A DNA stretch of 64,000 nucleotides from Escherichia coli (GCF_044647545.1 NZ_CP172818.1); one strand, 5' to 3'; shown: positions 13,480-21,341, numbered from the stretch's first letter. Notes: generated by a model not told the origin, from the letters alone. Numbers and translations: made by a program.

Positions 13480-16400
13480 ATGAGCGGAAAACCGGCGGCG
13501 CGTCAGGGCGACATGACGCAGTATGGCGGTAGCATTGTTCAGGGTTCTGCCGGGGTGCGTATTGGTGCCCCCACCGGCGTGGCCTGTTCAGTGTGCCCCG
13601 GCGGGGTGACGTCCGGTCATCCGGTCAATCCGCTGCTGGGTGCAAAGGTCCTTCCCGGCGAAACCGACCTTGCCCTGCCCGCCCCGCTGCCGTTCATCCT
13701 CTCCCGCACCTACAGCAGTTACCGGACAAAAACGTCCGCGCCGGTGGGGAGCCTCGGCCCCGGCTGGAAAATGCCTGCGGATATCCGCTTACAGCTGCGC
13801 GATAACACACTGATACTCAGTGATAACGGCGGCAGAAGCCTGTATTTTGAGCACCTGTTTCCCGGTGAGGACGGTTACAGCCGCAGCGAGTCACTCTGGC
13901 TGGTGCGCGGCGGCGTGGCGAAACTGGATGAAGGTCACCGGCTGGCCGCACTCTGGCAGGCGCTGCCGGAAGAGCTTCGCCTGAGTCCGCATCGTTATCT
14001 GGCGACGAACAGTCCACAGGGGCCGTGGTGGGTACTCGGCTGGTGTGAGCGGGTGCCGGAGGCGGATGAGGTGCTGCCTGCGCCGCTGCCGCCGTACCGG
14101 GTACTGACCGGGCTGGTGGACCGCTTCGGGCGCACACAGACGCTCCACCGCGAAGCCGCCGGTGAATTCAGCGGCGAAATCACCGGCGTGACGGATGGTG
14201 CCGGGCGTCACTTCCGGCTGGTACTGACCACGCAGGCGCTGCGGGCAGAAGAGGCCCGGCAGCAGGCCATTTCCGGCGGGACGGAACCGTCCGCTTTTCC
14301 TGATACCCTGCCGGGTTACACCGAATATGGCCGGGACAACGGTATCCGCCTGTCCGCTGTGTGGCTGACGCACGACCCGGAATATCCGGAGAATTTACCT
14401 GCCGCGCCGCTGGTGCGCTATGGCTGGACGCCACGCGGCGAACTGGCGGTGGTGTATGACCGCAGCAATACACAGGTGCGCAGCTTTACTTACGATGATA
14501 AATACCGGGGCCGGATGGTGGCGCACCGTCACACGGGCCGGCCGGAAATCCGTTACCGTTACGACAGTGACGGGCGGGTGACAGAGCAGCTAAACCCGGC
14601 AGGCTTAAGCTACACCTACTGTTATGAGCAAAACCGCATCACCATCACCGACAGCCTGAACCGCCGTGAAGTCCTGCACACGCAGGGCGAAGGCGGGCTG
14701 AAGCGGGTGGTGAAAAAGGAACACGCGGACGGCAGCGTCACGCAGAGTCAGTTTGACGCGGTGGGCAGGCTTAAGACACAGACGGATGCCGCAGGCCGGA
14801 CAACAGAATACAGCCCGGATGTGGTGACGGGCCTCATCACGCGCATCACCACGCCGGATGGCAGGGCATCGGCGTTTTACTATAACCACCACAGCCAGTT
14901 AACGTCAGCCACCGGGCCTGACGGGCTGGAAATACGCCGGGAATATGATGAATCCGGCCGTCTGATTCAGGAAACCGCCCCTGACGGCGATATCACCCGC
15001 TACCGTTATGATAATCCACACAGTGACTTCCCCTGCGCAACGGAAGATGCCACCGGCAGCCGGAAAACCATGACGTGGAGCCGTTACGGTCAGTTGCTGA
15101 GCTTCACCGACTGTTCCGGCTACCAGACCCGTTATGACCATGACCGCTTCGGGCAGATGACGGCGGTGCACCGCGAGGAAGGCCTGAGCCAGTGCCGCGC
15201 ATACGACAGCCGTGGACAGTTAATTGCCGTGAAAGACACGCAGGGCCATGAAACGCGGTATGAATACAACATCGCCGGTGACCTGACCGCCGTCATTGCC
15301 CCGGACGGCAGCAGAAACGGGACACAGTACGATGCGTGGGGAAAGGCCATCCGTACCACGCAGGGCGGGCTGACCCGCAGTATGGAATACGATGCTGCAG
15401 GACGGGTCATCCGCCTGACAAACGAAAACGGCAGCCACACCACCTTCCGTTACGATGTACTCGACCGGCTGATACAGGAAACCGGCTTTGACGGCCGCAC
15501 ACAGCGTTACCACCACGACCTGACCGGCAAACTTATCCGCAGCGAGGATGAGGGGCTGGTCACCCACTGGCACTATGACGAAGCAGACCGCATCACGCAG
15601 CGAACGGTGAATGGTGAAACCGCAGAACAGTGGCGGTACGACGAACGCGGCTGGCTGACACAAATCAGCCATCTCAGCGAAGGGCACCGGGTGACGGTGC
15701 ATTACGGGTATGATGAGAAAGGCCGCCTGACCGGTGAGCGCCAGACGGTGCATCATCCGCAGACGGAAGCACTGCTCTGGCAGCATGAGACCAGACATGC
15801 GTACAACGCGCAGGGGCTGGCGAACCGCTGTATACCGGACAACCTGCCCGCCGTGGAATGGCTGACTTATGGCAGTGGTTACCTGGCAGGGATGAAACTC
15901 GGCGACACACCGCTGGTGGAGTACACCCGCGACCGCCTGCACCGGGAAACGCTGCGCAGCTTCGGCCGTTATGAACTCACCACCGCTTATACCCCTGCCG
16001 GGCAGTTACAGAGCCAGCACCTGAACAGCCTGCAGTATGACCGCGATTACACCTGGAACGACAACGGCGAACTCATTCGCATCAGCAGCCCGCGCCAGAC
16101 CCGGAGTTACAGCTACAGCGACTCCGGCAGGCTGACCGGCGTTCACACCACCGCAGCGAACCTGGATATCCGCATCCCGTATGCCACGGACCCGGCAGGT
16201 AACCGCCTGCCCGACCCGGAGCTGCACCCGGACAGCACCCTCAGCATGTGGCCGGATAACCGTATCGCCCGTGACGCGCACTATCTTTACCGGTATGACC
16301 GTCACGGCAGGCTGACGGAGAAAACCGACCTCATCCCGGAAGGGGTTATCCGCACGGATGATGAGCGGACTCACCGGTACCATTACGACAGCCGGCACCG

Positions 16401-17664
16401 GCTGGTGCACTACACGCGGACACAATATGCAGAGCCGCTGGTCGAAAGTCGCTATCTTTACGACCCGCTGGGCCGCAGGGTGGCAAAACGGGTGTGGCGG
16501 CGTGAACGGGACCTGACGGGCTGGATGTCGCTGTCACGGAAACCGGAAGTGACCTGGTACGGCTGGGACGGCGACCGCCTGACCACGATACAGAACGACA
16601 GAACCCGCATCCAGACGGTTTATCAGCCGGGGAGCTTCACACCACTCATCAGGGTCGAAACCGCCACCGGTGAGCAGGCGAAAACGCAGCGCCGCAGCCT
16701 GGCGGATGCGCTTCAGCAGTCCGGCGGCGAAGACGGTGGCAGTGTGGTGTTCCCGCCGGTGCTGGTGCAGATGCTCGACCGGCTGGAAAGTGAAATCCTT
16801 ACTGACCGGGTGAGTGAGGAAAGCCGCCGCTGGCTGGCATCGTGCGGCCTGACGGTGGCGCAGATGCAAAACCAGATGGACCCGGTGTACACGCCGGCGC
16901 GAAAAATCCACCTGTACCACTGCGACCATCGCGGCCTGCCGCTGGCGCTTGTCAGCACGGAAGGGGCAACAGAATGGTGCGCAGAATACGATGAGTGGGG
17001 CAACCTGCTGAATGAAGAGAACCCGCACCAGCTCATCCGCCTGCCGGGTCAGCAGTATGATGAGGAGTCCGGCCTGTATTACAACCGCCACCGCTATTAT
17101 GACCCGCTGCAGGGGCGGTATATCACTCAGGATCCGATTGGGCTGAAGGGGGGATGGAATTTTTATCAGTATCCGTTGAATCCGAACTCAAATATAGATC
17201 CATTAGGATTAGAAACACTAAAATGCATTAAGCCACTGCATTCAATGGGCGGAACTGGTGAAAGAAGCGGTCCAGATATATGGGGGAATCCGTTCTATCA
17301 TCAATATCTTTGTGTCCCAGATGGTAAAGGGGACTATACTTGTGGTGGCCAAGACCAACGGGGAGAATCAAAAGGAGATGGTCTATGGGGGCCAGGTAAA
17401 GCAAGTAATGATACAAAAGAAGCTGCTGGCCGTTGTGACCTCGTTGAAACCGATAATAGTTGTGTGGAGAACTGTTTAAAAGGGAAGTTTAAAGAGGTAA
17501 GGCCGCGTTATTCTGTATTGCCTGATATATTCACACCTATAAATTTAGGGCTATTTAAAAACTGCCAAGACTGGTCTAATGATTCTTTAGAAACATGTAA
17601 GATGAAGTGCTCCGGAAATAACATTGGACGTTTTATTAGATTTGTATTCACCGGAGTGATGTAA
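13480..17664 (+). CDS. rhsC: Rhs polymorphic toxin: PAAR-like N-terminus, YD-repeat core, DPIGLKGG boundary, about 165-aa Cys-rich C-terminal tip of unknown activity
   Basis: 1394-aa ORF with abundant YD/RHS repeats and a core ending [19 protein letters not shown]; position after kdp-ybfA matches rhsC. Confidence 0.95.
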
Positions 17665-20461: not shown

Positions 20462-21341
20462 TTCCCTGCTTTTTGTACTAAATAATTCGCATTTTATGTT
20501 TAAAAATTGAGATATTCCTCATTACCTGAAGCTGTTTTTTATTGCTTATACATGATCAAATACTCCTTACATAATTAAGGAGAACAAAATGGTACTTAAA
20601 AAATTGATAGAACATATTTCTATTATCCCCGATTACAGACAAGCCTGGAAAGTGGAACATAAATTATCGGATATTCTACTGTTGACTATTTGTGCCGTTA
20701 TTTCTGGTGCAGAAGGCTGGGAAGATATAGAGGATTTTGGGGAAACACATCTCGATTTTTTGAAGCAATATGGTATTTTGAAAATGTATTCCTTTCACGA
20801 TACCATTGCCAGAGTTGTATCCTGTATCAGTCCTGCAAAATTTCACGAGTGCTTTATTAACTGGATGCGTACTGCCATTCTTCAGATGATAAAAGTTATT
20901 GCAATTGATGGAAAAACGCTCCGGCACTCTTATGACAAGAGTCGCCGCAGGGGAGCGATTCATGTCATTAGTGCGTTCTCAACAATGCACAGTCTTCATC
21001 GGAAGATCAGGAGGATGAGAAATCTAATGAGATTACAGCTATCCCTGAACTTCTTTACATGTTGGACATTAAAGGAAAAATCATCACAACTGATGCGATG
21101 GTTGCCAGAAAGATATTGCAGAGAAGATACAAAAACAGGATATTATTTATTCGCTGAAAATGAAACCAGGGGCGCTAAATAAAGCCTTCGAGAAAAATTT
21201 CCGCTGAAAGAATTAAATAATCCAGAGCATGACATTACGCAATGAGTGAAAAGAGTCACGGCAGAGAAGAAATCCGTCTTCACATTGTTTGCGATGTCCC
21301 TGATGAACTTATTGATTTCACGTTTGAATGGAAAGGAGCAG
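20462..21341 (+). mobile_element. Third tandem H-repeat copy, degenerate: many small internal deletions and a truncated 3' end
   Basis: Same leader and N-terminal coding sequence as the intact copy, then repeated 1-4 bp deletions break the frame (ORF pieces 20589-21182 and 21242-21460); homology ends near gaatggaaagg at about 21340. Confidence 0.8.
20589..21337 (+). pseudogene. Frameshifted ISAs1-family transposase pseudogene
   Basis: Translation follows the intact transposase in blocks separated by frameshifts. Confidence 0.75.

Follow-up and report, generated by a model that had tools for sequence, protein, structure and literature searches.

An Rhs element at the rhsC site of an Escherichia coli chromosome sequence and its probable origin in reference-guided assembly

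INTRODUCTION

Does the Rhs element that stands between ybfA and ybgA in the Escherichia coli chromosome sequence NZ_CP172818.1 (GCF_044647545.1) belong at that site? The segment in question occupies positions 13480–21341 of a stretch of 64,000 nucleotides, referred to below as the window, and contains an rhs gene annotated as rhsC, the small gene ybfB, an orphan fragment of an rhs core and copies of the H-repeat. A first-pass annotation made from the sequence alone had found its AT-rich tip and downstream gene consistent with a horizontally exchanged toxin/immunity cassette. The segment is a classical, long-known E. coli Rhs polymorphic-toxin element of the RhsC type. The comparisons described below indicate, with a probability that we put at roughly 0.87, that the window is a reference-guided assembly chimera, in which an isolate of the ST648 lineage was built on, or consensus-called against, the genome of K-12 MG1655.

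In Rhs proteins, a shell of YD repeats surrounds a variable toxin at the C-terminus, and autoproteolysis at a DPxGL motif sets the toxin free. The toxin is normally delivered by type VI secretion and a small gene downstream of rhs confers immunity. A core truncated at its 5' end, the orphan, can recombine with the main rhs gene, and H-repeats of the ISAs1 family are found downstream. Displaced tips, each with a piece of core, accumulate downstream of the main gene (Jackson et al. 2009, PMC2935791), and an orphan toxin can become active when the main and orphan copies recombine, as documented in Salmonella (Koskiniemi et al. 2014, PMC3967940; Poole et al. 2011, PMC3150448).

MATERIALS AND METHODS

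The window was compared with 5426 complete E. coli genomes. Two reference genomes, K-12 MG1655 and strain ST648 (NZ_CP008697.1), were used for painting the window in 1-kb bins and for locating runs of perfect identity. Cutoffs were 2000 bits for NCBIfam RHS_core (NF041261) and 70 bits for NCBIfam transpos_ISAs1 (NF033564), and Pfam repeats were counted at E ≤ 0.001. The ends of the insert were examined as subsequences of K-12 by means of the longest common subsequence (LCS), with 300 shuffles each as controls for the left end.

RESULTS

The window alternates between ST648 and K-12 sequence

The window is collinear with the K-12 gene order over all 64 kb. Wherever strain ST648 possesses the corresponding segment, the window shows 0–1 differences per kb to ST648 and lies 1–7% away from K-12; the blocks that match ST648 are 1–13374, 21394–30186, 35552–47177 and 53107–59403. 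Where ST648 lacks the segment, base-perfect runs of K-12 sequence are found instead, at 30182–35422 (5241 bp, ybgOPQD) and 47172–53110 (5939 bp, mngRAB). Islands of 8 kb and 24 kb that occur only in ST648 are absent from the window. The switches between the two sources at 30182/30186, 47172/47177 and 53107/53110 lie within about 5 bp of a homology boundary, and the fourth switch edge is formed by a stretch of 129 bp, 35423–35551, that matches neither genome. After these two runs, the Rhs segment counts as a third region that only K-12 possesses. Its description as the one clearly accessory segment has to be given up, 30187–35551 and 47178–53106 being missing from the nearest genomes as well.

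A source in Shigella or in a divergent lineage of E. coli was considered, 24000–34000 being only 98.0% identical to its best full-length matches, and was rejected given that the flanks are 100% ST648. The low value over this interval arises because ST648 and K-12 blocks are mixed within it.

The rhs block is identical to an element located elsewhere in ST648

Positions 13479–19030 (5552 bp) are 100.000% identical to the Rhs element found at rpmE-yiiX in ST648-type genomes, which carry this block once only, at that site. The exact 1394-amino acid (aa) protein was found between rpmE and yiiX/metJ in all 24 of the contigs read, and none had it at the kdp site. Strain ST648 has, in order, rpmE, rhsC, ybfB (frameshifted), the orphan core, a 107-aa gene annotated as 'RHS element protein dsORF-f3', IS1H and yiiX. 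In K-12 there is no Rhs gene between rpmE and yiiX, nor anything else. The rpmE-yiiX element (NZ_CP008697.1, 224299–230659) shares with the window the rhs gene, its tip, the frameshifted ybfB, the spacer, the orphan core and the first 10 nt of the orphan tip. It differs in its chromosomal site, in an orphan that runs on into a DUF4329 tip (product of 469 aa) and has the 107-aa gene behind it, and in what lies beyond, where an IS1H copy adjoins and H-repeats are lacking. Searches of Pfam, NCBIfam and PADLOC gave no match for the ST648 orphan tip protein or for the product of the gene downstream of it.

The RhsC element of K-12 MG1655 (rhsC-ybfB-ybfO-ybfC-ybfQ-ybfL-ybfD, 729583–738853) has the same position between ybfA and ybgA, the same order of parts and the same ybfB gene; its tip is 1 aa apart, and the orphan core and all three H-repeat positions are present. 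The first-pass identification of the parts (core, AT-rich tip, small membrane-protein gene, orphan and H-repeats) was right and fits this K-12 map. However, the core is only ~96% identical to that of K-12, and the window lacks 1383 bp and 71 bp, has a run of six rather than seven T in ybfB, an intact transposase in the middle H-repeat and insert ends with many small deletions. With a core of 96% and an H-repeat region of 92–93% identity, K-12 was rejected as the direct source of the whole segment. The segment is not an orthologue of the elements at the rhsC site, to which it is 96–97% identical, its closest relatives being empty there. The name 'RhsF/RhsFI', used in a paper on enterohaemorrhagic E. 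coli, was also set aside, as it refers to another locus. The paper on the LAU-EC genomes reports de novo assemblies and offers no explanation of the source.

The ybfA-ybgA site is empty in ST648-type genomes

In ST648-type genomes, as read at five loci, ybgA follows directly after ybfA with no Rhs element between them. The sequence at this junction is GGCGGTTT on one side and TCTTTTTTCGG on the other. The window corresponds to this empty site with an insert of 8019 bp at 13375–21393, and the empty-site sequence picks up again at 21394. The flanks are 100.000% (left, 9952–13374 bp) and 99.95% (right) identical to those of the empty-site genomes; against NZ_CP008697.1 itself, zero mismatches were found in 1–13374 and one indel in 21394–30186. 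Lineages at 97–98% identity have the identical junction, and because these more distant lineages share it the empty state must be the older one. The mosaic, the identity values and the vacant site of related genomes were all observed directly.

Both ends of the insert (Table 1) are K-12 sequence from which pieces have been removed, with no substitutions. For the left end the LCS was 104/104 against K-12 and against the region upstream of rhsB in ST648, with shuffle maxima of 92 and 90, and K-12 carries 71 bp more at this junction. Over its full length, 13375–13478 reached no more than 89.7% identity in any of the 5426 complete genomes. For the right end the LCS was 57/57 against a 104-nt segment of K-12 (shuffle mean 44, maximum 50), and 21338–21393 was unmatched in all 5426 genomes.

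Table 1. Features of the Rhs segment and of the insert that contains it (positions in the window)
Feature	Position	Strand	Basis or remarks
Left insert end, leader upstream of rhs	13375..13478	+	Deletion-only derivative of K-12 rhsC / ST648 rhsB upstream sequence
Intact rhs gene, annotated rhsC	13480..17664	+	4185-nt open reading frame (ORF), 1394 aa
Main-gene copy of 986-bp direct repeat (core 3' end)	16174..17159	+	Self-BLAST
AT-rich toxin tip, RhsC-CT	17155/17160..17664	+	169 aa after DPIGLKGG, residues 1226–1394, 9 Cys
ybfB, small membrane protein, candidate immunity gene	17664..17989	+	K-12 alignment, ORF list
Orphan rhs core fragment, downstream repeat copy	18035..19020	+	Self-BLAST, RHS_core positions 937–1247
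Junction found only in this sequence	19021..19037		10 nt of ST648 orphan tip (CCTGTATACA) + 7 nt CGCGCCG, unplaced
H-repeat (ISAs1-family) fragment, K-12 ybfQ position	19038..19160	+	123 bp, 78% to 19402–19524
Full-length H-repeat/ISEc1 copy, K-12 ybfL position	~19177..20469	+	Intact transposase ORF
Third H-repeat copy, partial, frameshifted, K-12 ybfD position	20470..21336	+	Broken ORFs
Right insert end	21337..21393		57 nt K-12 sequence, ~18 small deletions, zero substitutions

The H-repeat region

ST648 17-mers cover 2253 of the 2373 nt in 19021–21393. The first fragment, 19038–19160, is identical to the H-repeat fragment at the RhsA locus of ST648, 21-mers of which cover it completely. The middle copy contains an ORF, 19322–20458, for a 378-aa ISAs1 transposase (NCBIfam transpos_ISAs1 NF033564, 417 bits); the exact protein is called ISEc1 family transposase in its source records, and, compared with the ISEc1 copy that adjoins vgrG in ST648, the ORF has 1 nt changed and no amino acid. 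Its K-12 counterpart, ybfL, is a pseudogene. The third copy, 20470–21336, is 95.7% identical to 19203–20088 with 14 gap openings, and its k-mers are nearly all derived from ST648, with short patches that have no match. The H-repeat region is thus composed of ST648 sequence in K-12 order. What had been described as three tandem H-repeats is in fact a fragment of 123 bp, a single full copy and a partial copy that has decayed. A search of 11000–25000 for inverted repeats of at least 30 nt found none, shorter terminal repeats being outside this search.

In strain ST648 (NZ_CP008697.1, 2377500–2380000) an intact ISEc1 was seen directly downstream of a type VI vgrG gene.

The direct repeat and the orphan core

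The near-identical direct repeat of about 1 kb reported 1.9 kb downstream of the core 3' end is present. Its copies, 16174–17159 and 18035–19020, extend over 986 bp with 10 mismatches and without gaps (98.99% identity) at a spacing of 1861 bp, the start of the downstream copy being moved from 18037 to 18035. The orphan ORF, 18107–19054 (315 aa), stops 12 codons past its DPIGLKGG (18992–19015). It ends early because 1383 bp present in K-12 after the orphan core, comprising the ybfO tip, ybfC and the 5' part of ybfQ, are missing. The window orphan has no distinct toxin tip and no immunity gene of its own behind it, and runs into the H-repeat fragment; an orphan tip and a downstream gene are present at the genuine rpmE-yiiX locus and in K-12. 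Positions 18940–19330 were covered in none of the 5426 complete genomes. The sole record of the 315-aa product is a single contig of 4.50 Mb, where ST648-type chromosomes measure 4.8–5.4 Mb and that of K-12 4.64 Mb. The exact products of a 197-aa ORF in the H-repeat region and of the 495-aa phr ORF described below were found in no record.

Like the known modules of main and orphan rhs genes (PMC2935791, PMC3150448, PMC3967940), the segment combines a conserved core, a distinct tip and a near-identical downstream core fragment. Unlike them, its orphan carries neither toxin nor immunity gene, and recombination across the 986-bp repeat could therefore not yield a new toxin. The suggestion that the repeat serves as a substrate for tip switching thus fails for the window, where such recombination would remove the RhsC tip together with ybfB, and the Rhs that remained would have no toxin. 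At the genuine ST648 locus, the same repeat could fuse the main core to the DUF4329-type tip with its own 107-aa gene.

Probable origin of the locus in a chimeric assembly

The assembly procedure that we infer would have begun with the placing of reads or contigs of an ST648-lineage isolate on the K-12 genome, template that was not covered being retained. At the K-12 rhsC template, which is absent from ST648-type genomes, reads or contigs of the paralogous Rhs element at rpmE-yiiX would have been placed; paralogous ST648 sequence could be recruited to the Rhs region because the region is repetitive. Reads from the ISEc1 copies of the isolate would likewise have been placed on the K-12 H-repeat positions. 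The block from rhs through ybfB to the orphan core, 13479–19030, is then most likely real sequence that has been misplaced. The orphan without a tip, the junctions unique to this sequence, the middle transposase that looks 'repaired' and both ends of the insert are most likely artefacts of the assembly. If the locus in the window is misassembled, horizontal exchange at ybfA-ybgA cannot be concluded from this sequence. The proposal of a horizontally exchanged cassette at this site is not supportable, given that the ST648 relatives have an empty site and that the block matches the rpmE-yiiX element at 100%.

Some points weigh against a reference-guided chimera. The uncovered template of ybgOPQD and mngRAB was kept verbatim while 71 bp and 1383 bp were dropped, and no single simple rule fits both. 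The empty site was read at five loci, with 28 further similar places reported and about 59 ST648-like complete genomes overall. Lastly, the functions of RhsC-CT as a toxin and of YbfB as an immunity protein are presumed from knowledge of the family.

The alternatives must explain the same mosaic. A native element, that is a genuine RhsC element at ybfA-ybgA which the close relatives have lost, would suit the canonical rhsC position, the K-12-like order of the parts and the 937 complete genomes that have an element at this site. It is nevertheless very improbable, as relatives with 100% identical flanks have a clean empty site and the empty state is older, and as the core agrees at 100% with the rpmE-yiiX element but at only 96% with any element at the rhsC site. 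The insert ends, moreover, are deletion-only derivatives of K-12, and a native element would leave the two other perfect K-12 blocks unexplained. Those two blocks, unrelated and base-perfect, stand equally in the way of a real and recent copying of the rpmE-yiiX element into the empty site by duplication, transposition or gene conversion, perhaps aided by the H-repeats, since a local Rhs event cannot account for them. Such a copy would agree with the 100% identity of the block to its ST648 paralogue and with the adjoining ISAs1-family copies, one with an intact transposase. However, the insert has a K-12-type leader, a K-12-type tail and the three-copy order of H-repeats, all of which the rpmE-yiiX element lacks, and the identity ends exactly where the homology to the K-12 template ends. 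We consider recent copying no more credible than a native element; if true, it would be the first direct example of the mobility of an Rhs element. Gene conversion inside a genuine locus was rejected as superfluous, given the two other perfect K-12 blocks.

A true recombinant of K-12 and ST648, natural or laboratory-made and requiring many crossovers, would account for the alternation of perfect K-12 and perfect ST648 tracts, and it seems the least probable of these explanations. Three of the four switch points are within a few bases of an indel boundary, without flanking homology for an exchange of the RecA type, and the fourth lies beside the 129 bp that match neither genome. Genomes 2–4% apart do not swap tracts at insertion boundaries by homologous recombination. 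Furthermore, all K-12-only islands were kept and all ST648-only islands lost in 64 kb, and the Rhs block is ST648 sequence belonging to another locus.

If the window is, as we favour, an ST648 isolate assembled on K-12, then calls of presence or absence, junctions, pseudogenes and 'repaired' genes in its K-12-specific or repeated regions (Rhs, ybgOPQD, mngRAB) are unreliable, and assemblies built on a template should be discounted in scans for novel features. Biologically the element offers nothing new: the Rhs elements of E. coli K-12, with their tips, orphans and H-repeats, were described decades ago, and their part in contact-dependent competition is well established.

The main rhs gene

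The description of the gene as a full rhsC was borne out by the intact 1394-aa ORF and its match to RHS_core (NCBIfam NF041261, 2615 bits across residues 1–1244). The Rhs-associated core model TIGR03696 matched residues 1170–1244 with 82 bits and the repeat model TIGR01643 gave 139 bits, while in Pfam eleven copies of RHS_repeat and the RHS domain PF03527 were found. The N-terminus contains DUF6531 (1.3e-17) and a faint PAAR signal (E 0.2, residues 2–20). In a profile search against the PDB, solved Rhs/TcC proteins were matched in their C-terminal regions (1e-15 to 1e-19). On these model matches, the gene is assigned to the Rhs / YD-repeat polymorphic toxins, with a core that ends in DPxGL and is predicted to be cleaved there.

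The DPIGLKGG motif occupies residues 1218–1225 (nt 17131–17154), and both the repeat homology and the high GC content stop no more than 5 nt from it. The GC content is 0.623 in the core (13480–17159), 0.402 in the tip (17160–17664), 0.317 in the ybfB region and 0.52–0.54 in the flanks. The abrupt change from GC-rich to AT-rich sequence reported at about 17160 is therefore clear in the GC profile, where it appears as the fall from 0.623 to 0.402. Neither of the two findings that would have refuted the first-pass annotation was made, the compositional break being present and the downstream repeat being homologous to the core. No genes for a type VI secretion system (T6SS) were found in the 64-kb window; strain ST648 has vgrG elsewhere.

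The toxin tip

RhsC-CT differs from the K-12 RhsC tip by one amino acid change (I to N) and belongs to no family in Pfam, NCBIfam or PADLOC. Its homologues are found on Rhs proteins only, chiefly in the Enterobacteriaceae, and conserve eight Cys as well as the motifs YHQY and NCQDW. When the PDB was searched with the tip profile, the matches were confined to the Rhs core part of the alignment. A structure model of moderate quality was obtained (predicted local distance difference test, pLDDT, 62), and among its structure matches in AFDB the first annotated proteins other than Rhs were of LRAT, PPPDE and YiiX type, at ranks 19–45 with unannotated proteins between them.

The tip thus shows weak, if consistent, fold similarity to the permuted papain-like hydrolases (LRAT/PLAAT, PPPDE, YiiX, NlpC/P60 and the T6SS effector TseH). 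In these enzymes the His box and the NC motif are similar to YHQY and NCQDW, the correspondence of catalytic residues being putative. Eight conserved Cys are atypical of the group, and no match at the level of sequence was found. The RhsC tip may be an LRAT/PPPDE-like cysteine hydrolase, rich in disulfides, that acts in the envelope and is countered by YbfB, a membrane protein; this is a reasonable guess with weak support. Among the novel readings of this segment, a hydrolase tip is more modest than the mobility of the Rhs element but more likely. A literature search on rhsC together with ybfB found no functional study, and the weak link to the papain-like fold provides a testable idea for the RhsC toxin.

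The candidate immunity gene ybfB

The gene ybfB overlaps the stop codon of rhs, as in K-12. The run of T at 17677–17682 has six residues where K-12 has seven; the reading frame is shifted and the K-12 start is lost. The first canonical in-frame start is the ATG at 17732, giving a protein of 85 aa without the first hydrophobic segment, the 108-aa form of YbfB having hydropathy segments at residues ~1–31, ~39–77 and ~83–101. In strain ST648 the gene is marked 'frameshifted' by PGAP, and the run of six T is also found in complete ST648-type genomes. Because these complete genomes carry the identical change, the frameshift is genuine in the ST648 lineage and is no error of the present assembly. 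Through it the presumed immunity protein would lose its first hydrophobic segment, whereas the toxin gene is undamaged. YbfB matched none of the models in Pfam, NCBIfam or PADLOC. The toxin tip and the candidate immunity gene of the first-pass annotation are both in place, but ybfB is frameshifted and its role in immunity is presumed.

Minor differences outside the Rhs segment

Two short stretches, 35423–35551 and 40737–40745, lie beside block boundaries or repetitive extragenic palindromic (REP)-type intergenic sequence and have no exact match in K-12 or ST648; differences between strains or noise in the consensus are the probable causes. Near the 3' end of phr (~23355; ORF 21947–23434) there is a 4-nt deletion relative to ST648, which alters and lengthens the C-terminus to give an ORF of 495 aa against the 472 aa annotated; this deletion is perhaps an error in the consensus of this assembly.

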